From the IMG/VR virus record IMGVR_UViG_3300032007_000013: a stretch of DNA of 59,697 bases; one strand, 5' to 3'. A program made the translations under genes and the position numbers. The notes below the pieces were generated by a model. It was not told the origin of the DNA. It worked only from the letters and a program-made list of their open reading frames with translations, and searched no databases. Numbering within the stretch: the stretch's first letter is position 1; every line of letters starts with the position of its first letter. The stretch comes from a virus (lineage: Duplodnaviria > Heunggongvirae > Uroviricota > Caudoviricetes). Positions 4,545-59,627 of this stretch are shown here, in pieces.

Positions 4545-7500
4545 TTATTCATCTTTACGATTGATATATTGAATAGCTCTATTTGCTAAATTATCAAATG
4601 CCTCTTCAATTTCTTCTCTGTCAGTAGCATCAGGAAATTCAGCATTAATATTAACTTCTTGCTATACTGTAATATCCATATCACTTAAATCTGGAATCTA
4701 TAATTGGCCAATACCGCCAGACATTAGATCAGTTGACAAATCAATTTTTCTAAGTATGGTAGCAGCATCTAATAAATTCTCTGTATCTTCGGCATTAAAT
4801 ACATTTTCTTTTTCATGTAATATAGCAAGTTTCCCTTCACTGCCCCAACTACCAGTATAGCCGCCAGTATCATATGGAGTAAATGTAGTATCTGTTCCTG
4901 TGTATTTTGTAGCTTGATAATATTGCTGAAAAGCCTATTGAGCATCGGCCCAAGACCCATTTCCAGTAATAGCAGCAATAACAGAATTAAAGAAGTCTTC
5001 TTCTGTCTATTTTGCTGGATTATAAGAACGCACCTAAGTCAAAATATAAATTAACTAATTAATATTTTCAACTAAATGTTCAGTCTAAGCAACAGTATCA
5101 GCAATAGATTCTGAAAATTCATTTTGCCAAGCAATAGCAGCCTAAATAGCAGAGCCAAAATTATTGTTTAATACATCAGCTAAAGTTACTATTTCATCCT
5201 AAGTCTAATGAGCAGAATCTAAAATAGATGACATAGCTGTATTAACAGTATCACTAAAACCTCCTATTGAAGTACCAGTAACTTCAAGGACATCCTAAAA
5301 CATATGCGTTCTTTGATTTAATGCTTCTTGAAGTTTATCTTGATAATCTTGACTTGATTCAGCCCAATGAAGAAGATATGAATCAAAATCATTTATACCA
5401 GTTAATTGAGATAATAATGTTTCACTCCATGAATCAATTAATTCAGCATTAGACGCTTTATAAGTATCTAACATTCTCTGTAAAGTACCAGCCTAATTCT
5501 CAAATACTACTTCTGACTATTGTTCAAAGAAACCTATTTGCTACTATAACCAAGCATTAATTTCTTCAATACGAGCCTAACGCTCATCATCTGTTAAAGT
5601 AACATCAGTCATGATTTCTTGAAGTATATCTTTATAAGTAGACTAAGCTTCTAATGCTTTCTCTTGTAAGGTCTAGATATATTCTGCATTTAACTGTTGA
5701 TATTCATGTAATTTATCTTCATATTCCTATTCAGCCTGAGCCACTTCATCTTCATTAGCAGTAAATACATAACCCCAATTACCATCCATATCTCTCTATA
5801 AACGAACAGTCTATTTAGCTTCTTCTGCTAGCTATAAATCATTATAAGCCTACTATAATTCAAATTTAGCTCTTAAAGCATCAACTTCATACTAACTTAA
5901 ATCTGCTCCTTTTTCTTGATATTCTGTAATCTATTTTTGTAATTCAAGAATTTCCTATCTATTAGTAACTCCACGAGTATCAGTTAATAATTTATTAATT
6001 TCTCTCTATAATTTATTTAATTCATATAAAGTATCATAATCTTCTAAATAATGAGTATCTTCATCACTAATTCTATTAAAAGCATCCTATAAATATTCAA
6101 GAGAACCAAAAGCTCCAGATATAGCTTTATCAAATTCTGCTACAATATTATCCATCATAGTTTCAAATATTTCTTGAATTAAATCAGAAGTTTCTTGCCA
6201 TCTATCATAATATTCTTCATGAGCATCATTTAAAGCCTCCTAGGTTGACTACAAGGTCTCTTCCCACTTATGAGCCATATCTTCATCACCATTAGCAATA
6301 GCATTATTATAGGCTGCCTGTGCCATAGCATAACTTTCCTGTAAAGCATTATATCTATCTTTAGCAGTTTCTAACTAAATTTTTGATGATTCTAACATAG
6401 CATCATTTAACTAAGAAATTAATTTTAACTAATCTCTATTAATCTACTATCCCATTAAATCAGTAATATCCTTAAATGTTTCTAATACTGTATTATAAAT
6501 ATCAAATTTATCATAAGCATTTTCAACTTTTTCATTGAAACTATCAAAAGCATCATTCACTTTATCAACAATATTTTGTTTAATTTCTAACAATGCTTGA
6601 TTTGCTTCTAAAAGGCCATCTCGCCATTCTTTAATAGCATCTATTTGCTCTTGAGTAAAATCACCATGCATAATTTTTCTTAATACATCTGGATCAGTTA
6701 AATGATCTAAATCATCCATAGTCATTCCACGAAAACGATTTCCACCAAGTTCTTGTCCTAACCAATCTTTAATACCTTGATTATAGGTAGAAATCTTACT
6801 AAATAAATCTTGGACTTGATTTCCAAAAATACCTATAGCTTTTGAAGCTTTATAAGCATCATCTTCATACTTAGATAAATAATATTCCAAAAGGGCCATG
6901 TCATCATCATTAATTTCAATCTTCATATCAACAGTAGTCTAAATTTTTTCAAAAAAAGCATCAGAAATTTCATCCATCATTTGACGAACTTTATTCATTT
7001 CTTCTTCAAATTTATTTAAAGTTTCTTCATATCTCTCAATATATTCACGAGCATCATCAATAGCCTATTGCCACATTTCAAGATAAATTTTTAAAGCATC
7101 AGGCATTTCTGCCCCAGTAACACGAAATTGATTTTCAATATCTATAATCTAATTTTCCATATCAAGTAACTGTTTTTCAATTTCATCATAATTCTTAATA
7201 ACACCATTATCATCAATTTCAACGCCTATATTAAAAAATCCATTATTGCCTAATGCTTCTCTCATTTTTTGTAAATCTTGTGGAAGTTTTTCAGCTATTT
7301 CTTTTGTATATTCTTGCTATAAAGCCAAAGACTATTTTCTTAAATCAATTTCTTTTTCTAACTAATAAATTTTTTCTTTTCCAAAAGCTCGTTCTTTTTC
7401 TCGTTCTGCTTCATCCTATTTTCTTTTAGTATCACCAATACGTTCTTTTACACGATGGTATCGTCTGCCCATATCTTCTTTTTTGTGAGGTTTAGGAGCT

Positions 7501-10500
7501 TGTGGATGGCCTCCGCCTCCACCACCGCCTCCACCACCGCCTCCACCACCGGCGGTTTGGTTACCTCCAATTTTACTCGCAGATTTAATCTAAAACTATG
7601 GTACTTCATACTCTCCAGTTTCTACTTCTACACCATCAGGTACATAATAATAAAATGTTTGATTGCCATCTAGTCCATAACATAACTCAGAAGCTTGTCT
7701 AAATTTTACGGCTGCTCCCTAAACTTCCTCTGTTTTAGGCCCTAAATCATCAACTTCAACTCTTAACCCAAATAATTCAGCAGCTAATTGCTAAAATTGT
7801 TCACCACTTGTTGCAAACTGATTCAAGAAACTTTGAACCTAATCTAAAACTGCCTAATATTCTGAGCCAACCAATTCAGCATCAGGAGCTACATCCATAT
7901 TATCAACTAAAGCGTTAATTTCAGCTATCTAAGAACCTAAAGTCTAAATAGCACTATCAATTTCCCCTCGCATTGCTTCTATTTCTTTTTCTGTTTTTCC
8001 TGATAAAGTTGTTGCTGCCAATAGACCAGCAGCCTAAATCTGACCGAAAGCCTAAGCATCACCATTTAAACTTTTTTCTAATAAACCATTCTTTCTAATT
8101 AAGTTTGTTAAAGGAGTTGGCATATTTTCTATTACACGAGAATATTTACCTAATTGACGATTTAACCTTTTGACAGTTTTTTCATCTTTTTGGTCCTAGG
8201 TAATATTTTTCCCCTTCTATTTTTCTAATCTATCTAGAGCTTCTGTATAAGTATCTAAATTTTGCTCTAAATCTTCTACTGCTTCAGCCTGTCCAACAAA
8301 CATTTCAGCAAAGTCTAAAGCCTATAAGCGACTTGTGGCTGCTCCAATATCTTCTAAATAATCTGCCATTTCTTTAACTGCTTTCCAATCAGTATCATTT
8401 GGTAAAGCATCTTTAAAAGCTCTTTCAGCCTCTGCCCCAAAATCTTTAGCCTTCTCTTTAGCTCCTTCAATGGCTGTTTCTAATTCCGCTATCTTATCAG
8501 TAGTTTCAGATACAGTATCACCCATGCTAGCTGCTAAATCTAGATTTTCATCAGAAATAGCTCCGCTTTCTTCTGACATACCTTCTTCAATACCAGACAA
8601 ACTAGCATCATACTCATCGGCAGATATATTTCCTTCGGCTCTTTCGGCATCTAAATCTGCTTTTTGCTACTATAATTCTAATACTCTTTCTAAAGCAGCA
8701 ACTTCTGCATCTGCCGCTTCAGCTTTAGCAGCTGCTTCATCAGCAATTGCATCAGCTCTTTCTTGTAAAAATTCTAACTATTCATCAGAATCCATATCTC
8801 TAAAATCTGAGTAAGAAGTGTCTTCTTCATCCCAATCAATAATCCCTTTAGCATCTTGAGCGAATTTATCCCAGTCAGCACTGCTCATATCTTCTTTTAA
8901 ATCGCCCATTAAAGTTTCTAATCCATCAAGTCCTTCTCGGATAGGGGCCACAGGATCGTTAAAGGTATCTTCTGTTTGCCCTAAAATAGCCATTAACTAT
9001 TCTGCTTCGCTAACAGCTGAAGCTAATGCGTCTACTATTTGGTCAAAACTTTCTGTTCCTACTCCTTCTAATAGAGCTTTTAATTCTTCAGATAATCCTT
9101 TTCCATTTAATAAATCATCTACAATTTCTTCATATGTTTTTTCTGGATTGTTTGCCTATTCTTGAGCTATTGTTTCTTGCAACTACTATAATCCAGTAAT
9201 TTTATTCTAAGTTGCTGCTAACGATTCTTCTGCCTAACTATACTAATCATTTCCCTATGAACGTAAAAATTCTTTGCTAGTTTTAAAATTAGCCTGAATA
9301 AACTAATTATATAAATCAGTTGGTATACCATTATTATCAATTAATCCAAAATCTTTACCATGCTCTCTAGCCCATTTAGCTTTATCAGTATCAGAAGTAA
9401 ATTCTTGAAAAGCAGATTCCATACGAGACAAAACTGGATCAAGTTGGCGTTCCCAAGTCTATCCTTTAGCAGCGTCAATTTTACCCTAAGTAGCTTGTAA
9501 ATTAGCATAAGCATTATTTTTATCATATACTCCACTAATAAATTCATCATAATTATTTCCTAAAATTTCTCTTAATCTAGAATCTGCCTAAGCATTAGTT
9601 CCAGATTTTTTACCTGCTAATAAACGTTCTATTGTTCCATCTTCAAAAGCATCAATCTACTTCTAATACTAATCAAGTTTTGCTTGATCAACTTGAATTG
9701 ATTGCTGTAAAGCATTGCGATTCCATTCTGCTCTTTCACTATCAGTGACTTTATAATATCTGCCAACTGCATCCCAATCAGGATTTTCGCCATTTGGTCC
9801 AGATAAGCCTAAATATTCTCCACTTTCTTGTAAGAATTTAATTAATTCATTGCCACTCATAGTAGTGGAAAAACTATCTAATGCAGATTTCAGATTTTCA
9901 AATTCTAATTTCTACATAGCTTCCATTTGTTCAGCAGCTGCTTTCAAACGTTCTTCTATCTCTGCTGCTGAGACAGCTCCACCTTCAAGAATATCTTGTA
10001 AAACCTATAGTTTATCAGCCGTTGTTACTGCCGCTTGTAATTTTTCTAATAAATTATCTGCTGAAACATCAGATAAAAATCCAGATGAACGTAAATTATC
10101 TATTTCACTTTGTATAGCTTTATCAAGTTTATCTTTATCTTCAATTTTTGTGGCATCTTTTAATTTACTTTGAGATTCTTCCCAAGAATCAATTTTTCCA
10201 TGATCAGCAACCATTTGTGCTCCAATGGCTTTTTGCATCTATTCCTATTGATTCTTATAAGAACTAAGAATAAAATCGGCCGCAGCTGTCCCTCCACCAG
10301 CCTTATATTTACCAGTCTTATCAGTAAATCCCAATACTTCTCCATACTCTTTAATAAAACTATTCCACGCATCTGGGTTCATATTTTCGGATAAAGCATT
10401 CGCCGCTGACATAATAGTACCTAATTTATTAGTATCAAAAATTTCTGCATAAGCATTTAATATATATTTAATATCAGCTATAGCTTCTGCTCTTTGAAGT

Positions 10501-13500
10501 TTTAATTCACCAATAACTTGTTCTCTATATTTATCATCTGATTCAAGCTTTTTCTATTCTTCTTCGGTATATCCTAATCCAGCTAAACTATTCTCTTCTC
10601 CTGTAAAATTTTCTAATTTTTCTAAAATAGCGTCATATTGGTCAACTGCTTCCTATAGCTTATCAGCTTTAGAATAGCCAGCAGCTCTAATAATATCCTA
10701 CTAAGTTTCATAATCAGAATTAATAAAATTAGCTTTAGCTTCATCAGTATCTAATCCTAAATCAGAACCATAATTTCCAAGAAAAGTAGCCCACTCTTTT
10801 CCGCTCATATTTTCTTTGAAATCTTTTTTGGCTTTATCAATATTTTCAATCTAAGTACGAATCATAACTGGATCAGCATCAGCAATTTTCTAAAGTTCAG
10901 CTATAAGACCAGCAAAATCTAACTATCCATTCTAAATAAATGATGAAATATCCCCGAAATCAAACATTTTTTGCCAAATATTTGGAGTAAATTTCATTAA
11001 TTTATCAAAAGCTTCTGTCCCAAAATTCTTAGGATCAAAAATAGAATTAAATATATCTTGAGAAAATTCTGGTAGATTCTATTCTTTAAATATTTTTTCT
11101 ACATTAAACATCTATTGAGCTAATGTATTTAATTGCTATTCATTAAACTAATCCAGATTTCCATTATCCCAAAGATCATTCCACTAATTTGCCCCATAAT
11201 GAGGATTATTAGTATCAAATCGATATAATGCTGGAGAACCATTTCGCACAGCTTCAGCATAATCTGTATCTACTCTTCCATAAATCTTATCTTTACTTTT
11301 TGAAATAAAATCAGAAGCCGCACTACGAATGCTATCATCAGCAAAACCGCCGAGCTCTTCTAACATTTGATTCATAATAGCATTTAAGCCAGTATCTTTT
11401 CCATTTAAGCCTAATAAAGTTCTAATATCACTACCATTTTGTCCTAAATTTCGCATCTATTCTAATGACATAGAACCAATTATATCTTCATAATTAAATT
11501 TTTGATCCTTTACATCATAAAATGGTAAAATTTTACTTAAACTAGACTACTAATCAGCATTTAAATCTTTATACAATGAATCAGCTTTTTTAGAAACTTC
11601 TTTCGCCTATTTTATAGCTTCTTGTTGAGCAAACCAATTTGCTAAACCTTCTTGGCTTAAATCTAAAGCTTCATTCTTTAATGTTGTTGGATTAAAAGTA
11701 CTAAAATGATATCCATTATCATCTCTTAATACTCCATTAGTAGATGCTCGAACTGTATTATCGTATTGCTACATCTAAGCCAAAAGCCACTGACCTTCAG
11801 TTGAGTTAAATTCTAATTTTTCTTTTTTAGCAAATTCAGAAATAGTCTAATAATTAGAACGCCCAGGGGCAGCTCCCATAGGGCCTCCACCATAATTTTC
11901 GATATAAGTTGGAATATTCATTCCAGAAACAATTTCTCCACCTAATACTCGGTTCCATAAATCAATTGTTTCTTTATTTTCTTCGCTACTAGCCTACAAA
12001 GCCCTTATTTGTGCATAATCAGAACTATCTTGTCCAATAATATCTTTTATAGATAATCCGCCTAATAAAGCTAATTTTTCACTAGCAGTAGCAGCATTCT
12101 AGCCCATTTCGAGAATCTTCTATTGCCATGTTTCAATAGAACCTTCTGTTGCGTCACAAGATCCAACTAAACGAGTAAAAGCTTCTTCTAAGGCAGCAGG
12201 AGACTCTTTCGCAGCATTAAATAATTCTGAAAGATTATCATTTATTTTAGTTTTTATCTCATCTTCTGTCAATTCTCTATTTTCAGATAAATCAGTTCCA
12301 GAAGTCATAACTCCTAATTGACCAACATCTTTTATTACCTAACGAACAAAAGTAGTCATATCAGCATTTAACTAAGCATCAGCAGCTGCACTATCAGATA
12401 AAATAGAACCAAATTGGGCTTCACTTTCTCTTATATCTGCCCTTTCCTATGCCTGTTTTAATAAAGTCTCATTTAAACGTCCAGTTTCCTAATACTCTCT
12501 ACGTAACTATTTTAATTCATCTAAATTTAAATTATTACCAATAGAACTAAAGACAGAACGGACAGAAGATTCTGTCTACTATAAAGCATTATTCCATTCT
12601 TCAGTGCCGCGTACACAACTATCTAAAGCACTAGTAGCATTTTTATATCCATCAATCGCAGTTTTTAGACCTTCAGCAGACTATTTAGCTTTATCATATG
12701 CGGCGGCCATCTAATTAGCAGCTTCGGCGGCATTTGCTGCTTGCGTATAAGGTAAATTTCGAGCAGCTTCAACGGCTTCATATAAATGGATGCCTAAAGC
12801 TACTACTGCTGCAGTAATTGCTATAATAGCAGCAGCTCCACCCATACTTAATCCAGCAAAAGCTCCACTAAGATTTTTAACTGCTCCAATTAAATTAGGT
12901 ACTGCCATACCAATGCCCATTAAGCCTGCTAAAACTTTATCAGTAGCTGAAGCACTATCATCTCCCCAAGTTTTAAACATTGAACGCAAAGAGTTAATAG
13001 CAACATAAGTTTGCATAGCAGCAGCCCCAACCTTAGCCATTGATTCTATTGGACTTGTTTCATGTTTTGGGTTATGTTCATCAATTCTTTGTCTTATAGT
13101 ATTTTCTTTGTCTTTAGCATCTTGATTAGCTTTATCTCTCTAAGCTTCAGCATCTTTTACTGCCTTATCCTAAGCTTCATATTTTTCTTGAGCATCTTTT
13201 AATTCTTTATTAACACCTTTTAATTGTTCTTTCTATTCTTCAGTTAAATCTTTATTACTTTCTAACTTAGTTTTAATCTAATTTAATCGTTTTACTTCTT
13301 CTTGTGTGTTATCTCTAGTATTTCTAGCTTTTTCTAACTGTTTAGTAATAGTATCTACTTCTTTATAAGCTTTCGATAAATCTTTTAATCCCTATTCATC
13401 TATGCCCAAACCTTTTAAAATAGACTTACTTTCATTTGTTCCAACGGGCATTTTTTCAATATTAGTACGTAAAGCTTTTAACTAATCATTAAATTTTGTT

Positions 13501-15836
13501 ATATCAGTTTCTTGAGTTAAATCTTTAAAAGCTTTCTATAACCCAGCATTATTTTTCAATATTGGTTCATAAGCTTTATTTATAGCATCTAATTTCTATT
13601 TAGCATCTTCTAAAGATTCTTCACTCTAAACTTTTCCTATTGAACCAAGTGAACTTTTAAAGACAGAACTTACATCAGTCTTATTCTAAGCTCCTACAGC
13701 TGTCTATAATAAATTGTTAATTAAATTATCATTAGCTGACTAAATAGTCTATTGTCTTGAACTTGAAAATAATGGATTTGAACTTAAACTATTAAAAGCT
13801 GATGGAGTAGTAGCTATTTTATTAATAGCAGTACCATATAATGAATTATAATTAGCCTAAGCAGAACGCTATTGGCCAAAATATGTTTTTACATCATCCC
13901 TTGAACTTTGTAATCTATTTTGGGCATCTCTCTATGCCGCTTCAACAGCTTCCTTTCTATTATCAGCAGCACTTTTTCGAGCTTCCTTAGCTGCTGTTAC
14001 TTTTTCTTCTGCTTTAGTAGCATCAGCAATCATTTTAGCATACTCTTCATATTCTTTTTGCAAACCAAAGATATATAATTCTTCTTGAGCTCGTTCTTTA
14101 TCATTCATCTAATCACTAACAGCACTAAATTTTGTACGGGCAGTTAATATTCCAGAATATCCAGTTAATTCTGCTTTAGTAGTAGGACTAGCATTCTACC
14201 AATTGCTTTTAATGATATTATTCATTTCTTCCTACATACCGCCATATACTTTCTATGCTCCGCCGCCCAATACTTTCATATTTTGAATCATTTGGCTTAT
14301 AGCAGGAGTAATTTTATTAGCAACATTAGATAAAAAAATAGAACTTAATCCTGTTAAAATAGTTTTAATTCCACCTAAACGTTCGATAAAATTATCAATT
14401 CCACTAAGAGTATCTGATAATCCATTATTAAAAGAAATAAAAAATTTATCATCTAATAAAGTCTAATATAAACCTTCTGTAGCAACCTTTACTCTATCAC
14501 GAGCTGCTTCCCAAGATTCGGCATATATATCCGCCTGAGCCTATAAAGTGCCTTCTGAATTTTGGGCTGTCCCTAAATTAACTTTAAATACATCCCATTT
14601 ATCCATTAATGCTACTAAATTAGTATATTGGCGAACACCACCAACTGTTTCTGCTAAAGCTACCTATTGAGCTTTTGTTAATCCCTACCATTTAGATGCC
14701 ATTTCATCTAAAATAGTGTCCATATCCTTTAATTCGCCAGTTTGAGTCTATATATCTACTCCAATAGTTTTTAATGCCTATGAATACTTATTTAAAGTAG
14801 TACCATCTTCTAAAGTCTCTCCAAGAGATAATCCTTGTAAACGAGAGAAAATAGTTCTTAAAGAAGTACCTACTTGATCAGCACTCTAACGAGTTTCAGC
14901 AACTAATGTTGCTAATGCAGAAGTAGCATATTCATAACTTAAACCAATTGTCTTGGCGACAGCTGAGAATTTGCTTAAACCAGTAGCGATTTCTTGTGAA
15001 CTTGAAGCAGTAGAAGCACCTAATGCTGTAATAACATCAATATAAGATTCTAATGATTTACTACCATTATCAAAGTTATTCCAAATAGCAGTCATTTGAT
15101 CAGATACAGCTTCGGCACTTTGACGAGAAACATTAGCTAATTTTAATGTAGCAGCTGTTCTTTCTGCAACCTATTTATCATCTAAACCCTATTGATAATA
15201 AATTAATGAAGCTTTTGTATAATCTAATGTAGTAGCATTTAATTGTTTAGCATTCTTATTTGCTTGTTCAGCAAATTTACTCATTTGTTCTATACTCTAA
15301 CCAGTAACAATACGAATATTATTTAATGATTCATTTAAATCCTATGAATAGTTCATAGCTGTCTATATACCACCTATTAAACCATGCATAATACTAGATG
15401 ATAACTAGAAACGAGCTACATTTTTTAATGTAGTAAACATAGTATTTAAATGACTATTAACACTTAAAGCAGGCTGATCAGCCATAGAAATAGATTTAGC
15501 TAAAGCGGTAAATGCCTATTGTCCAGTACTACCAGCATCCTTAAAACTTGCAGTTAATTGAGTTAAGCTTGTTCCACTTGCTTTTAAACTAGAATTTAAT
15601 TTACTTAAATCTAAATTTCCAGTTTTTATATTAAAAGCATTATTTAAATGCATTGCCAATTCACGAGCATTAGCAGATGCCTCTTTAAATTTCTATGGAT
15701 CTAATACACCTATTGATTGATTTGCTGATCCATATCCTAATTTCTAAATAGCTGACTATAATTCGTTAATAGCAGATTTAGCCTAAGAAGTGTCAGCTGT
15801 AAATCTCATATCTACATTTAGATGTTTTCCACCCAT
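4545..15836 (-). CDS. Tail tape measure protein (~3763 aa, TAG=Gln)
   Basis: ATG at 15836 with SD. N-terminal TP901/PhageMin_Tail-like region (LNESLNNIRIVTG...KASLIYYQQG...TAIWNNF...VGTSLRTIFSRL). Nine code-11 fragments share this frame. Ala-rich helical repeats, hydrophobic segment near 12.7-13.0 kb, C-terminal YDTGGYTG...LAILHEKE motif, TAA at 4545. Not every codon was checked for TAA/TGA. Confidence 0.85.
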
Positions 15837-36366: not shown

Positions 36367-36675
36367 ATGATTAACATTAGAACGATTAACAAACTCACTG
36401 AGAATGATGGACTTACTCTTAAAAATGGCAAGCCAATCACTTATAAAAGTGGTTGGCAGGTTGCCACCGAGGGCGTGGAGTGCCACACCGCACGGGAAGC
36501 CATCAACGCGGTTAAGGCTTACGCTGGTAACTGCGGGGTGTGGTTCGCTGGTGGTATCTACTACATCGACAAAAGCCACCGCGTAAACACAAAGCGGGAA
36601 GCACTGGAAGTCGGCAGGGCTTGCAATCAGATTTCCGTACTCGGTTGGCGTAAAATGGCTTTAGCGTACTGCTAA
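36367..36675 (+). CDS. Hypothetical early protein
   Basis: SD-corrected start MINIRTINK. Own promoter. Confidence 0.75.
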   Translation: MINIRTINKLTENDGLTLKNGKPITYKSGWQVATEGVECHTAREAINAVKAYAGNCGVWFAGGIYYIDKSHRVNTKREALEVGRACNQISVLGWRKMALAYC

Positions 36676-46196: not shown

Positions 46197-46518
46197 TTAC
46201 TCGCGGTTTTCTATTCATTTTTTTAGAATGGTTATGCATTGTATAAGCATACATTATAAATGAATTTTATACGGGCCATTTTTGGCGCGCCGCCCCTGGT
46301 CGATGCGGCGCGTTTTTCGCTGTAATAATTCTGCCACAATTTTGTCATCAATTTGTAACACATTCGTATGAACAAGTAAAGTCCCGAAATGAATAATTAT
46401 ACAATAAATAATGAATAAAAATTCAGAAAATTTTTTTGAAAAAATTAAAAAAAAGTGTTGACAAACGCCCGGGCATCTGCTATAATCATAGACAGAAAGG
46501 GACAAGGAGGACGAAAAA

Positions 46519-46926
46519 ATGACTAACTACTACTTCGACATGGACGGCGTTCTGGCTGACTTCCATGGTGCTTATACTGATAGGGCACAGGCTTTTCAGT
46601 ATGATTTTATCGCTAACCTTGCCCCGTTTACCGCAAATGTTGAGCTGGCAAAGTCCCTCATGGCACAGGGCAATCGGGTTTACATTTCCACCATTGCCGC
46701 AAGTGAAGAAGCAAAGCAGGCGAAAATTGATTGGCTTGCAAAGTATCTCCCGGAGATCCCCCGTTATCGCATCATCATCATCGTGGGGCATGGCAACAAG
46801 GCCGAACACATGAAAACGAAGACCGGAATCCTCATTGATGACAAGCGTGCCAATTGCCGCCAGTGGGAAAAGGCTGGACAGCATGCGGTTTGGCTGGAAA
46901 TCAAGGGGGGAGCAATCTCCCTTTGA
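46519..46926 (+). CDS. HAD-superfamily 5'(3')-nucleotidase-like protein
   Basis: YFDMDGVLAD, K..WL..YLP, K, ILIDD...N...W. Confidence 0.8.
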   Translation: MTNYYFDMDGVLADFHGAYTDRAQAFQYDFIANLAPFTANVELAKSLMAQGNRVYISTIAASEEAKQAKIDWLAKYLPEIPRYRIIIIVGHGNKAEHMKTKTGILIDDKRANCRQWEKAGQHAVWLEIKGGAISL

Positions 46927-47021
46927 TTCTAAAAAAAAATTATTTTGTAATCATTTTGTAGTTGATTTTGCCCGGGCTATTTGCTATAATTAAGCCAGAA
47001 AGAAACAAGGGGGACAAAAAA

Positions 47022-47456
47022 ATGTACGCTATCGCTTATACAAACATCATCACCTGCAAGAAGTCCGGCGACACCGCACAGCAGACCGCAAACTTCTATC
47101 ACACCGGACGGACTGAAAGACATGACGATCGCCCGTGGTATGAGGGAAGCGACATTGAAGAAATTCACGCTTCTGTTAAGTCCAACGGCTTCAGCCTTGC
47201 CGATGGCCGCACCAATCACGGCGATACTCTGGAAGAAAAATGGAATGACTTCCGCACTCGTACCGCTTCCAATCTCTTTATTTATGTAACAAATGACTTT
47301 ATCGGCTATTATATGACGATTGAAGAATTTGAAGAGTTTGTAAAAATGTGGTGCTATGTTAGCACAGAATCCGCAAAAAACGGCGGGCGGTCTAAGATTA
47401 GATGTAAGCATGAAAGCCAAAAAATGCGGAATTGGTTAGCTCACAGGGCGGGATAA
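47022..47456 (+). CDS. Hypothetical protein, paralog of 49205-49660
   Basis: Shared SDIE...SVK...F.L and F.YV...M...EFE.FVK..C....ES......K.R.K. Confidence 0.7.
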   Translation: MYAIAYTNIITCKKSGDTAQQTANFYHTGRTERHDDRPWYEGSDIEEIHASVKSNGFSLADGRTNHGDTLEEKWNDFRTRTASNLFIYVTNDFIGYYMTIEEFEEFVKMWCYVSTESAKNGGRSKIRCKHESQKMRNWLAHRAG

Positions 47457-47563: not shown

Positions 47564-48030
47564 ATGTTCTTTGAAATCGTTGAAATTGCTGAAACCGCAT
47601 GGGGCGATGATGATGTTATTCGTGGCCGCTTTGATACTCTTGCCGAAGCCGAAGCTTTTATCGCTGAAACCTATGGCGATGATGTGGATGACATTTATGT
47701 GCAGGATTCTATGGGAGAAGTCGTCTGGGGCTAAAAAAAGTTCTTGACAAATCCGGCTCTATAGTGTATAATCCTAAGTGTAAAGAAGAGATACGAAAGG
47801 AAGTAAAGAAAATGAAAAAGTTCGTTTATCAAGTAGCAGGTTTTGAGTATGTCGGCTTTGAAGCTTTTGGGGATGCGTGGAAGCAGGCCAGAGCCAAGGC
47901 CACCGAACTTCACGCGGGCATCTATCGTCTGGTTATCAAGGGCGAAATTGTCAAGCAGGAAGTGCTGGTAAATGGTGGGTGCTTCCTCTCCGTGGATCGC
48001 GTACAGCCTGAGCAGGTGCTCATCTTCTAA
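47564..48030 (+). CDS. Two small ORFs (acidic 47564-47734, and 47812-48030)
   Basis: Each is behind a near-identical promoter GTTCTTGACAAATCCGG....TAGTGTATAATCCTAAGTGTAAAG. Confidence 0.7.
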
Positions 48031-48297
48031 GGGACTTGAATAAAGTCCCATTTTTTTTGGCTATTTATGCATTGTATACTCATTCATTTTCAATGAAACT
48101 TTATTCATTTCGGCGTGCCGCTCCTGGTCGACGCGGCACGTTTCCAGTATAACATACGCTGGGCAAAAAATCAATAGGCAAAATGCACAAAATTTTAACC
48201 TCGGCGGTTTCCCGAAAATTCCTTTGTGCAAAATGACGAATCGCTCAAAAATTGAAAAAAACTCTTGCAATCTGTGTTATAGTATGGTATTATAACA

Positions 48298-48792
48298 GTG
48301 TCAGGAGGGGTTGAGAGAATCCCCCACCCGACCCGGCGGTTCTTAAGGGTTCATCCTTAAAGCCCTTCCCCAATGGCGGTTCCCGTGAGTAGCCCCGCCC
48401 TCGGCCTTCGGGCAAACAAAAGCTAACACCCCACGCAGGCGGTGGAGTTAAAAAACAGCCGCTGGTTATGGTTCCAGAGTCAACAAAACAACCAACCGCG
48501 TACACGCGAAAGGCTTCCCACCATCGAAGCCGAGTAGGACAGGCCGCCACCTGACACCGCGGGATAGAAATAGAGGCCAACGGCTTCCCCAAGTGGCAGG
48601 GAAGCCAAGCCCAACGGAGCCAGCAGTAAATCGCCTGTGAGCGTCGTAAGACTGGCAAGAGCCGAGGAGCCGCACGCCGAAGTCCTACTGTGCGGGATAT
48701 AAATGTGGAGGCAACATGCGGGGAGCTTCTGGAACCCCCAGGCTGGTAGGATGGAAGCAACGGGACGGGAACAAAAAGCCCGCCCCATTTTT
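48298..48792 (+). ncRNA. Large structured ncRNA candidate (~490 nt)
   Basis: Promoter TTGCAA-17-TATTAT at 48265-48293. GC-rich, no SD-led ORF, nested long-range helices and multiple hairpins. Confidence 0.6.
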
Positions 48793-49204
48793 ATTACTCT
48801 CTGTATAATGCATTTTATACATTAAAACCTGTATAAAGATTCATTTTCGGCGGCCCGCTTCCAGACGCTGCGGGCCGTTTTTCGCTTTAACACGCTAAAG
48901 CGATAAATTGTTAGCGATTTAGCACGCTAAAGTGCTACCACGGTAAATCCCTAAACCTACTGGGTTAGTATACTTTAGTACGCTAAATCGTTAAACCTAT
49001 ATGCCCAATAGGTATATATACTTTAACACATTAAATCGCTAATATACTAAAACCTATATAGCCAGTAGGAGATTACAAAATAGTAACAATATAAAACAAT
49101 ATGGATAATTAGTATTGACATGTGCGGGATATGGTGTTATACTAATACTGTAAGTAAGAGAAAGAGAACAAGAAACAAAGAGATTACAAAGGAGTTACAG
49201 AATT

Positions 49205-49660
49205 ATGACAACCATGTGCGTTCCTGACGTGTTCCCCACTATCAAGAATAAGGGTATCCGAGCACAGGCTAATATGACCGCCGCTTGCGGACAAAAGTAC
49301 CTTGCCCATGACGGCAAGGCATATGACCATGCTTCTGACATTGAGTATATGGGCTATCATATCAGCGTTAAGGCGTACCACTTCACCCTTATGAGCGGTA
49401 CGCTGTGCGAAGGTAAGGACACTATCAACGACATATGGGATGTATATGCTCGCTCCACTCACAGCGACCGCTTCGCATATGTCCTCGGTGAGACAGCATA
49501 TATTATGAATATCGTTGAATTTGAGAAGTTTGTCAAGCTGTTCTGTGAGATTGAGCGTGAAAGCAATCACAGCGACAGACAGCATACTGGTAGCGTCAAA
49601 GTTCGTGCCAAGCGTTGCGAAGGCAATATGGCGAAGTGGTTCGCCCATATGATGGCCTAA
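49205..49660 (+). CDS. Hypothetical protein, paralog of 47022-47456
   Basis: AAGGAG SD and sequence similarity as described for 47022-47456. Confidence 0.7.
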   Translation: MTTMCVPDVFPTIKNKGIRAQANMTAACGQKYLAHDGKAYDHASDIEYMGYHISVKAYHFTLMSGTLCEGKDTINDIWDVYARSTHSDRFAYVLGETAYIMNIVEFEKFVKLFCEIERESNHSDRQHTGSVKVRAKRCEGNMAKWFAHMMA

Positions 49661-49786
49661 TCCATATGCCCGGGCGGCAACATATACAAAGCCGCCCGCT
49701 CCAATTTGTGCAATATGCTGACTTGACAAATATAAAAAAATTTGGTAAAATATATATACAAAAGATAAAGAAAGGAATTGATAAAA

Positions 49787-50221
49787 ATGACGATTTGGTT
49801 TGATATGGATGGAACGATTGCCGACCTGTATGGTGTGGAGAATTGGCTCCCGATGCTTCGGGCAAGCGATCCTACCCCCTATATGGTCGCCCGTCCGCTG
49901 GTAAATCTGTCTATTCTGGCAAGGATGCTGAATAAGCTCCAGAAACAGGGCTATGAAATCGGCGTGATTAGCTGGACTTCCAAGACTGGCACTCCTGACT
50001 ATAATGCCGCTGTGACTGCCGCCAAGTATGCGTGGCTGTCTAAGCACTTGCCGTCTGTGGATTTTGACGAAATCCATGTTGTTCCCTACGGCACTCCCAA
50101 GCAGGTCTTTGCCCATTCTGACGATGATATTTTGTTCGATGATGAAGCAAAAAACCGTGAAAACTGGACTGGATTGGCTCTGGATGTTACCGATATTATT
50201 GGTGCTTTGAAAGCCCTCTAA
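49787..50221 (+). CDS. HAD-superfamily nucleotidase-like protein
   Basis: WFDMDGTIADL, K..WL.KHLP, K, ILFDD...N...W. Confidence 0.8.
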   Translation: MTIWFDMDGTIADLYGVENWLPMLRASDPTPYMVARPLVNLSILARMLNKLQKQGYEIGVISWTSKTGTPDYNAAVTAAKYAWLSKHLPSVDFDEIHVVPYGTPKQVFAHSDDDILFDDEAKNRENWTGLALDVTDIIGALKAL

Positions 50222-51513: not shown

Positions 51514-51600
51514 GCGTGGGTGCTGGAACTGGTATACAGATTGGTCTTAAAAACCAATGCCCAAATGGGATTGGGGGTTCAAATCCCCTCCCACGCACCA
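51514..51600 (+). tRNA. tRNA-Leu (anticodon UAA)
   Basis: Acceptor stem GCGTGGG/CCCACGC plus ACCA. Anticodon arm TTGGT-CTTAAAA-ACCAA, long variable arm, GTTCAAATC T-loop. Own promoter at 51461. Confidence 0.95.
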
Positions 51601-54711: not shown

Positions 54712-55068
54712 TTGTTCCAAGGGAAAGGGAAGTGGTACCCCCTGAGTAACGGAAGAACTGGACAGCAAGCTTTCAGTGGTTAGGACTGTCAAGTACAAAA
54801 AAATTTCGGACTGATGACTTTTGAAGTATCGTTTTACCAAGTGACGAGAGATAGTTTCAAAGAAAACTGTCTACAAGTGAATTGGGTGACCTTTAGTTTT
54901 ATGGTTAAAGGTGGGTATTCCTTGGGGTGACAGGTTTTGGTTTCCAAAAAAGGAAAACGAAAATAGACAGGAACCCTAAAAAATCCAAAAAAGTTTTGTC
55001 AGAGGGAAGAATTATGAGGCATTAGTAGTAAGTCCTCCGAAAGGGTTTAACCGCCCTCTGACAAAATT
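54712..55068 (+). ncRNA. Structured ncRNA candidate (~350 nt)
   Basis: Promoter at 54679. Serial hairpins, ending in a 13-bp stem TTTTGTCAGAGGG/CCCTCTGACAAAA. No SD-led ORF. Confidence 0.5.
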
Positions 55069-59222: not shown

Positions 59223-59627
59223 ATGTCCCGTAAGCTGTCCTATGTTTCTGCGATTGATTTCGCTCTGTCCGTCCTGTCCCAGATTGATGCCGCTCAGGTG
59301 GCTATCCCCGCAGCCAAGGAAGAGGACGCTCCTGTGTCTGTCGGTGAGGTCGTGGAGAAGCTGACCGCTCTCCGTGAGAAGCAGGCCGCTCGTTCGGCTA
59401 CTAAGGCCGAGGGGCCGACCAAGGCCCAGCTTGAGCGTGCCGCCCTTGCCTCCCGCATCGGTGATGCTATGGAGCCGGGTGTGACCTACGGCAACGCTGA
59501 GATTGCCGCCCTCCTGCCGGAGCTGGCTGGTGCTACTCCCCAGCGTCTGTCCCCCCTCATGGCTCTGCTCGGTGAGCGGATTGTGACCTCTAAGGTCAAG
59601 GGCAAGAACTACTACACTCTTGCCTGA
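59223..59627 (+). CDS. Putative winged-helix DNA-binding protein
   Basis: GAGGT SD. C-terminal helix-turn-helix plus beta-wing (T.QRLSPLM..L...IVTSKVKGKNYYTL). GC-rich biased codons, three tandem promoters upstream, terminator at 59633-59663. Confidence 0.6.
   Translation: MSRKLSYVSAIDFALSVLSQIDAAQVAIPAAKEEDAPVSVGEVVEKLTALREKQAARSATKAEGPTKAQLERAALASRIGDAMEPGVTYGNAEIAALLPELAGATPQRLSPLMALLGERIVTSKVKGKNYYTLA

Follow-up and report, generated by a model that had tools for sequence, protein, structure and literature searches.

We found that a 59,697-nt stretch of phage DNA (IMG/VR record IMGVR_UViG_3300032007_000013; hereafter, the window) carries a non-coding RNA gene of about 495 nt at positions 48298-48795 of its plus strand; the phage is a stop-codon-recoded phage of the gut or rumen. 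Taken as a whole, the evidence is probably best explained by a single early non-coding RNA (ncRNA) that is a fusion of three modules (A, B and C), the last of which, the C unit, represents a new RNA family. The C-type unit is a recurrent element of 170-200 nt with 28 distinct copies, and its fold is strongly supported by covariation among them. An earlier reading of the sequence by itself (the original prediction) had proposed a structured, non-coding phage RNA here, and covariation among homologues, the check that it suggested, bears this out.

The RNA gene and its C-type unit

As the original prediction held, the gene is a GC-rich island (58% GC; local GC 0.57-0.61 across 48300-48800 versus 0.346 for the whole window) with its own predicted promoter, which together with its flank is 87% identical in the homologous locus L073. 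The plus strand of the island is U-poor (15% U) and A-rich. At the 3' end, a hairpin at 48762-48786 (7 of 8 pairs, 9-nt loop) is followed by five T, and this T-run lies 72 nt past the match to covariance model R1 described below. The parts of the gene are as follows.

48265-48293, plus strand: sigma-70-type promoter from a promoter scan (TTGCAA, 17-nt spacer, TATTAT, upstream TG)
near 48298-48301, plus strand: transcription start predicted from the promoter
48298-48490, plus strand: module A, lineage-specific 5' domain, from comparison with loci L078 and L073
48491-48607, plus strand: module B core (model R2, 139.8 bits)
48608-48760 (module to 48795), plus strand: module C, member of the recurrent C-type unit (model R1)
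48762-48795, plus strand: 3' end, hairpin GGGACGGG/CCCGCCCC then UUUUU, likely an intrinsic terminator, read directly from the sequence

A protein-coding signature was looked for on either strand and none was seen, in keeping with the claim that the island has no translatable open reading frame (ORF). Stops occur throughout all plus-strand frames, and the minus-strand ORFs of 156 aa (48290-48760) and 102 aa have low-complexity, junk-like translations with no Pfam or PHROG match. Neither an open frame shared with homologues nor indels in threes were found; instead, homologues differ within the conserved core by indels of 1-2 nt, not multiples of three. The plus-strand orientation is indicated by several helices that are kept through G-U pairs, which would be A-C on the opposite strand.

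Copies of the C unit were collected from viral contigs and metagenome-assembled genomes by scanning a second conserved motif (GCGGGAUAUAAAUGUG) and a composite pattern. Covariance model R1, built from 13 seeds including the window, gave 27 full-length matches; its match in the window (48593-48716; 68.1 bits, E 1.8e-17) is partly by construction, since the window is among the seeds. Model R3, seeded from four other members without the window, did not list the window at E ≤ 0.01 and found its close relative L073 at 38.7 bits. The features by which membership was judged (P1, P3, P4, the P4-loop pseudoknot and the invariant GGGAUAUAAAUGUG that adjoins P4) are all present in the window, where the fold, derived from the alignment and from per-sequence folds, comprises these elements.

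48619-48623 / 48652-48656, plus strand: P1, GCCAG / CUGGC (cognate test)
48632-48634 / 48641-48643, plus strand: P3, CGC / GCG, loop CUGUGA (covariation)
48644-48651, plus strand: junction UCGUAAGA
48670-48675 / 48690-48695, plus strand: P4, CCGCAC / GUGCGG (covariation)
48694-48708, plus strand: invariant GGGAUAUAAAUGUGG
48720-48723 / 48735-48738, plus strand: P5b, GGGG / CCCC
48682-48752, plus strand: pseudoknot, P4 loop GUCCUACU (48682-48689) with UGGUAGGAU (48744-48752), from co-change in the family

Across the family, the 5' part has a stem P0, an internal loop (3' strand CGAUAAAG) and the stem P1, followed by a three-way junction whose joining strands, CA(A/G)A and GUAAGA, are conserved. 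P2 is a variable hairpin, absent from the window and L073. P3 is a 3-bp stem (GAC/GUC, CGC/GCG or GCC/GGC) that closes the conserved loop CCACGAGA, shortened to CUGUGA in the window and L073. The 3' part consists of P4 (CCGCA/UGCGG), the invariant GGGAUAUAAAUGUGA-ACCAG, a variable P5 region and a strand complementary to the P4 loop; the P5b stem is inverted in other members (CCCC...GGGG), with the conserved UGGAA at the end of its loop. CCACGAGAG resembles the sarcin-ricin loop, but this likeness was rejected, since the covarying 3-bp P3 stem closes that loop and is incompatible with sarcin-ricin geometry.

In the R1 alignment, P3 and P4 were 96.1% paired versus 83.9% after shuffling, with 20 double-change cells (0 of 500 shuffles), and in the R3 alignment 94.9% of the cells of P0, P1, P3 and P4 were paired versus 78.9% in shuffled and 28-51% in slid controls, with 13 of 19 pairs and 75 cells changed on both sides (0 of 500 on all five measures); many of the sequences are related, and these shuffle counts are strong support rather than probabilities. 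Counting was done on alignments fitted to the models, which biases it towards structure. For P1 and for the pseudoknot, the cognate strands each beat 5000 of 5000 permutations that exchanged 5' and 3' strands between sequences. Loop and partner of the pseudoknot change together (for example GUCCUG/CAGGAC, GUCAUGC/GCAUGAU, UCGCCACGG/CCGUGGUGA, UCUCCCAUUG/UGAUGGGAGA and GGGAUACU/GGUAUCCU), forming a helix of 8-9 bp; in most units its 3' strand is found 33-62 nt downstream of the invariant motif.

In one locus (L113, 1501-1609; G048), the 5' domain stands alone (P1, P2, P3 and the GUAAGA junction, without P4 or pseudoknot) as the leader of an ORF for a 59-aa membrane protein. Hence, the two halves of the C unit are separable.

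The C-type unit looks like an RNA family outside Rfam 15 and apparently a new class, one of the outcomes that the original prediction had allowed for. Its other suggestion, membership of ROOL or GOLLD, fell away: a permissive Rfam 15 scan of 48000-49100 at E ≤ 10 found no ROOL, GOLLD, OLE, HEARO, raiA, tmRNA, RNase P, introns, ribozymes or riboswitches, only eight matches (E 0.03-9.8) to unrelated families far below gathering scores, and ten loci with typical C-family members gave no Rfam match at E ≤ 1. Among known families, tmRNA, RNase P RNA, group I/II introns, 6S, SRP, phi29 pRNA, ribozymes and riboswitches had no match in Rfam, nor did tmRNA in ARAGORN, in agreement with the lack of tmRNA and RNase P hallmarks noted at the outset. 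The region had no blastn match among 50,697 phage records, and phAss-1 (a phage with a related capsid protein; see below) has no similar DNA and no R1 match. In the literature on large phage RNAs, viral structured-RNA discovery and recoded phages, we found no description of a C-type RNA. The nearest such work is the IMG/VR catalogue of Fremin et al. 2023 (PMC10690425), which mined the same virus collection for covariation and lists 8,495 unnamed structured-RNA candidates, each at most 151 nt; compared by text alone, the paper describes no such motif, and pieces of the C family could be among those candidates.

The three modules and their pairings

The first close relatives, G001 and G002, share with the window RNA a 61-nt stretch that is part of a shorter promoter-to-terminator RNA of about 310 nt. 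Scanning the motif CCGCGG-N-AUAGAAAUAGA through metagenomes gave more short forms, window-like loci (L073 and L078) and a third type (L077 and L080). By this comparison, the window RNA is a fusion of modules A (48298-48490), B (48491-48607) and C (48608-48795). This three-module fusion, whose best-supported tertiary pairing is the local pseudoknot of the 3' module, replaces the original view of a single large domain that long-range helices close.

Layouts differ among the relatives. In L078 and L073, an insertion of a consensus promoter plus about 100 nt separates A from B, and another 100 nt separate B from C, giving A, an internal promoter and then B+C. B and C units are under separate promoters in L077 and L080, and B-type and C-type RNAs lie 8 kb apart in G001 (locus L062). 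Judged by their sequences, the modules in relatives are separate transcription units. Modules A and B are confined to close relatives of the window.

Module A consists of a 5' hairpin (GGAGGGG..CCCCC), a hairpin AAGGG/UCCUU, a stem GGCGG/CCGCC and a UUCG hairpin (GCC/GGC). It is 90% identical in L078 over 48300-48491 and 87% identical in L073 over the first 85 nt, and an exact 20-mer from it had no match in IMG/VR. Compared by eye, L078 changes the UUCG hairpin from GCC/GGC to CCC/GGG, a compensatory difference, and a G-U to a G-C pair in the AAGGG hairpin. Module B and its possible contact with the 5' end contain the following elements.

48512-48517 / 48526-48531, plus strand: hairpin H2, GGCUUC / GAAGCC (covariation)
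48544-48547 / 48559-48562, plus strand: hairpin CCGC / GCGG
48563-48576, plus strand: conserved GAUAGAAAUAGAGG
48582-48589 / 48599-48606, plus strand: hairpin H4, GGCUUCCC / GGGAAGCC (covariation)
48298-48305 / 48550-48557, plus strand: candidate long-range pairing, not established, of the 5' end GUGUCAGG with the B hairpin loop CCUGACAC (perfect 8-bp helix)

H2 and H4 together have nine pairs with changes on both sides and are 96.3% paired versus 83.5% after shuffling (0 of 500). For the candidate pairing of the 5' end, L073 and L078 have CCUGACGC, with which it would persist with one U-G pair; no equivalent was found in L077 or L080, and the pairing is not general.

All helices named in the original prediction are present in the sequence, and homologues separate them. 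The hairpin GGCTTCCC/GGGAAGCC (48582-48589/48599-48606), which is H4, has compensatory changes. The pairing of AGTAGGAC (48533) with GTCCTACT (48682) can form, but the covarying partner of the P4 loop is 48744-48752, not AGTAGGAC. In module B, AGUAGGAC (48533-48540) is constant while the P4 loop becomes GUCCUGUU, and the pairing then survives only via two G-U pairs; AGUAGGAC may be a competing alternative partner of the loop. For the 9-bp helix GGTTCCAGA/TCTGGAACC, whose first arm lies in module A, TCTGGAACC overlaps the conserved hairpin GGGG/CCCC (48720-48723/48735-48738), and no homologue has both arms. The crossing CAGGCG/CGCCTG pairing is where it was placed, but its end pair is lost in L078 (by eye); likewise, TTCCCGT/ACGGGAA, put forward as a closing helix, exists but overlaps the 5' arm of the terminal hairpin.

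Two further pairings were weakened by homologues. The helix CCTCGGC (48399)/GCCGAGG (48661) has two mismatches in L078 (by eye), while the local UUCG hairpin changes compensatorily. A 16/17 complementarity between the 5' arm of an upstream GC hairpin (48109-48125) and the P4 region (48665-48681) is not conserved in L073 and is probably due to chance. The 17-mer GAGTAGGACAGGCCGCC gave chance matches only, in coding DNA.

Additional promoter-driven, ORF-less, GC-rich units of 100-300 nt occur in L077 (1-297) and in L133 (G065 contig 25), in the latter as the second promoter unit, behind the C unit. A GAGGG../..CCCUC stem closes them, and their junction strands (CAAAG / UAAGC) are D1-like. Phages related to the window may have a wider repertoire of small structured RNAs.

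Three IMG/VR contigs from unrelated phages (L065, L066 and L068; 336, 50 and 11 kb) share, just ahead of large tRNA arrays, a hairpin ACCGCG..CGCGGU that is followed by AUAGAAAUAGAG, a 12-mer also present in module B. As a relative of module B, this jumbo-phage element (a 16-base motif around AUAGAAAUAGA) was set aside as a short, unproven likeness (R2 13 bits, E 0.054).

Distribution, possible roles and known RNAs

In 21 of the 25 C units checked for promoters, a promoter matching 10-12 of 12 consensus positions ends 9-13 nt before the model start. The C modules of the window, L073 and L078 have no such promoter 9-13 nt upstream and are fused behind B; in the window, a single predicted promoter (48265-48293) serves the whole transcript. 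Each of the 14 viral records searched whole has exactly one C unit, including a 96%-complete genome of 115 kb, and nine near-complete relatives of 150-185 kb lack it, as expected of an accessory gene. One Clostridia metagenome bin has six copies on six contigs, several of them at contig ends, probably a mix of phage strains.

What follows a C unit varies: about 40% run into a T-run 57-144 nt beyond the core, others meet the next promoter with no ORF in between, and still others precede tRNAs or a small, unrelated ORF that has a Shine-Dalgarno sequence. A partner protein was sought beside the RNA over 24 loci, which gave only shared early genes (an NT5C-type nucleotidase and others) at varying distances and spurious antisense ORFs; no protein family adjoins the C unit at a fixed position in these loci.

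In the reading we prefer, host RNA polymerase would transcribe the RNA from an early sigma-70-type promoter, ending at the hairpin and U-run. The C unit recurs, normally once per genome immediately behind its own consensus promoter, in a broad, mostly stop-codon-recoded lineage of gut/rumen phages. Its invariant unpaired nucleotides would bind, and hence sequester or scaffold, a host or phage factor, a role akin to that of early accessory host-takeover or anti-defence genes, with A and B as accessory domains that come either fused or as transcripts of their own. We infer this action in trans, as a stand-alone early product binding a host or phage factor, tentatively and put its chances at a little short of even. 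A bolder and improbable version is that the C unit is a new functional RNA class (an aptamer, a ribozyme or the protein-binding core of a ribonucleoprotein) deployed early by stop-reassigned phages, with A/B partners fused or assembling in trans. If true, A, B and the C unit would together make up a modular RNA machine, split in nature, whose job might concern takeover of host translation or countering of RNA-targeting defence.

Several findings weigh against the preferred reading, besides the model-fitted alignments and related sequences noted above. Promoter and terminator are predictions, and the terminal hairpin was missed by the stricter criteria of a terminator scan. Six Watson-Crick helices of at least 8 bp occur in the region versus a mean of 1.83 in 200 dinucleotide shuffles, and the whole-region folding energy is ordinary (z = -0.65, plus strand); since the helix excess accompanies an ordinary folding energy, sequence alone does not decide the RNA question. 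In the window, the complements of two conserved single-stranded segments (13-14-mers) show no enrichment. At L089, L097, L104, L113, L072 and L125, the unit is followed directly by a Shine-Dalgarno sequence and ORF or by tRNAs, with no promoter between, an arrangement as compatible with a leader acting in cis as with an RNA acting in trans.

As a promoter-proximal leader, the C unit would make RNA polymerase terminator-resistant, as HK022 put and EAR do, or would be a ligand- or protein-sensing switch over downstream read-through or translation. We consider this rather unlikely. Its attractions are the constant spacing to a consensus promoter in 21 of 25 units, the varied cargo (tRNAs, further cassettes and small ORFs whose Shine-Dalgarno sequence lies 50-70 nt beyond the core) and an early region built as a chain of promoter-gene-terminator cassettes, where read-through control would matter. 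Alternative pairings also suit it: the P4 loop of L089 can pair with the pseudoknot partner or with the Shine-Dalgarno sequence, and the terminal hairpin of the window would be disrupted if GUUCCCGU (48379-48386) paired with ACGGGAAC (48765-48772). However, the L089 alternative was not seen in other members, the downstream gene is inconsistent, and units either end in a T-run (again, about 40%) or run in other cases straight into the next promoter without cargo. Behind the window unit itself come 400 nt of non-coding repeats, and a strong promoter at 49115 serves the next gene. HK022 put and EAR are cis-acting processive antitermination RNAs with conserved unpaired nucleotides, EAR being pseudoknotted; the two stem-loops of put bind the beta' subunit of RNA polymerase, and read-through is cis-dependent. 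Both are promoter-proximal structured RNAs like the C unit, put phage-encoded and EAR operon-internal, but put is described as two stem-loops of about 70 nt without a three-way junction, and behind many C units the next promoter or terminator comes without cargo in between. We know of no put model in Rfam; EAR, which we take to be an Rfam family, gave no match in the permissive window scan.

The remaining readings are less probable. A self-cleaving or otherwise catalytic RNA, with junction and pseudoknot as the active site that would process the transcript (for example, freeing downstream tRNAs or mRNAs), would suit a compact, pseudoknotted unit with highly conserved unpaired nucleotides, some copies of which lie directly upstream of tRNAs, and phage genomes are known homes of small ribozymes. 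It is very unlikely: no Rfam ribozyme family matches, no conserved cleavage-site context was recognised, and each unit has its own promoter, so there is nothing upstream to cleave off. An origin or primer RNA would end by AT-rich repeated boxes and prime or activate replication there, as ColE1 RNA II and the phage T4 origin transcripts do. The window, L073, L077, L072 and L076 do have an AT-rich stretch with several ACTTTAGC..GCTAAAGT-type boxes within about 100 nt, but these loci are close relatives, so that this is shared synteny and not independent evidence; boxes also occur at several other places in early regions and are absent beside the RNA in G059, G062, G052 and G054, and there is no G-over-C bias that would favour an R-loop. 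This reading is highly improbable, and a tie between the RNA and these boxes was rejected, since the boxes are general early-region features. That there is no RNA gene at all, only GC-rich foreign or coding DNA (the minus-strand ORF at 48290-48760, 156 aa) with helices by chance, has almost no likelihood left. The long minus-strand ORFs, the clustering of the homologues' antisense ORFs by BLASTP, the unremarkable folding-energy z and another GC-rich stretch that is an ordinary gene (59224-59627) speak for it. Its translation, however, is of low complexity without Pfam or PHROG match, the antisense similarity is the RNA's own conservation with indels that are not multiples of three, the helices carry compensatory substitutions, and the consensus promoters face the plus strand at a fixed distance.

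Among known phage RNAs, phi29 pRNA is an RNA of about 170 nt from an early promoter whose loop-loop pairings covary while the sequence diverges. It differs in that Rfam gives no match and the window phage has a terminase-type packaging module; moreover, the two strands of the covarying loop pairing of the C unit are a fixed distance apart in one molecule. Hence, the pairing reads as an intramolecular pseudoknot. Riboswitch aptamers with a three-way junction and pseudoknot resemble the C unit in starting right after the transcription start, in their compactness and in combining invariant junction nucleotides with variable helices, and some C copies precede an ORF. However, no known class matches, the genes downstream of C units are mutually unrelated, and many copies have no downstream ORF. 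ROOL (RF03087), first found in rumen metagenomes (PMC5737381, PMC12286853), and GOLLD (RF01998) are ornate RNAs known from Firmicutes phages and prophages; they are large (500-800 nt), GC-rich, multi-helix ncRNAs from phages of gut, rumen or lactic bacteria, sometimes near tRNAs. The window RNA matches neither covariance model, consists of concatenated modules that also exist as separate transcripts of 170-310 nt, and has a three-way junction and pseudoknot as its conserved core. The expected proximity to tRNAs holds in part: a tRNA-Leu lies 2.7 kb off and a few family members are directly before tRNAs, but the association is loose.

Few classes of large or complex structured RNAs are known from phages, and ROOL and GOLLD are structurally remarkable and functionally unexplained. 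The C family has a clear fold, with a three-way junction, a pseudoknot and some 40 invariant nucleotides; its transcription start is defined, it exists in nature both fused and split, and its sequences are diverse enough for structure work. At 170-200 nt, it is small enough for direct biochemistry (ligand binding, self-cleavage, cryo-EM and pull-downs). It sits in a lineage that mostly rewrites the code of its late genes and whose early takeover functions are barely known, and adding it to RNA databases could improve annotation of gut and rumen viromes.

The phage and its early region

The 59.7-kb window has 34.6% GC and hardly any long ORFs in the standard code. With TAG read through, the coverage by long frames is 0.84 instead of 0.31, and two frames, of 3763 and 1353 aa, emerge. 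The late genes on the minus strand (3-33829) depend on TAG being read as an amino acid; they encode a terminase, a portal protein, a capsid-like protein, a sigma factor and giant tail proteins, and the 3763-aa ORF (4545-15836) has 148 in-frame TAGs. From 33.9 to 59.7 kb, small early genes on the plus strand, almost free of in-frame TAG, form a chain of promoter-gene-terminator cassettes. The only Rfam 15 match in the window at gathering score is tRNA-Leu (UAA) at 51514, the tRNA 2.7 kb from the RNA, and the 59.7-kb window has no suppressor tRNA.

The capsid-like protein is 52% identical to the capsid of phage phAss-1, which GenBank places in the 'Caudoviricetes code 15 clade' and whose probable hosts are Clostridia (PMC10607447). 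IMG/VR holds 47 relatives nearer to the window than phAss-1. All eight large RNA-bearing records have a capsid homologue 31-74% identical to that of the window; six are TAG-recoded, one looks TGA-recoded (G049; IMG/VR 3300028887_000164, 49 kb, where TGA read-through gives the largest long-frame gain, from 0.24 to 0.64) and for one, G056, a fragment of 46 kb, the standard code works well (0.79). Several genetic codes may be in use in the lineage. An exclusive tie of the RNA to TAG recoding was rejected on the strength of G049 and G056.

A second GC-rich stretch of the window (59224-59627), up to 65% GC, is an ordinary gene for a 134-aa protein. Hence, GC richness is no marker of RNA genes in this phage. 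The proteins neighbouring the RNA, at 49205-49660 and 46962-47456, had no relatives in IMG/VR by the pattern method. Two paralogous genes for 5'-nucleotidases of NT5C/HAD type (46519-46926 and 49778-50221) lie on either side of the RNA locus, and homologues occur within 6 kb of the RNA, at variable distances, in 14 of about 24 loci. This proximity indicates common early-region content.

A 49-nt element occurs in three copies (46277-46325, 48105-48153 and 48842-48890), two of them on either side of the RNA gene. It contains a GC-rich hairpin, in which the copies differ by compensatory changes, and a T-run; each copy follows an AT-rich block with TGTATA.. boxes. Right after the RNA, an AT-rich spacer (48883-49041) holds at least four direct or inverted copies of a box of about 23 nt (ACTTTAGCACGCTAAAGT type). 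Similar boxes are found at 36659 and at 54891, and distant relatives have them in their early regions (in G063, as arrays of 3-6); they are probably operator or iteron sites of some DNA-binding protein.

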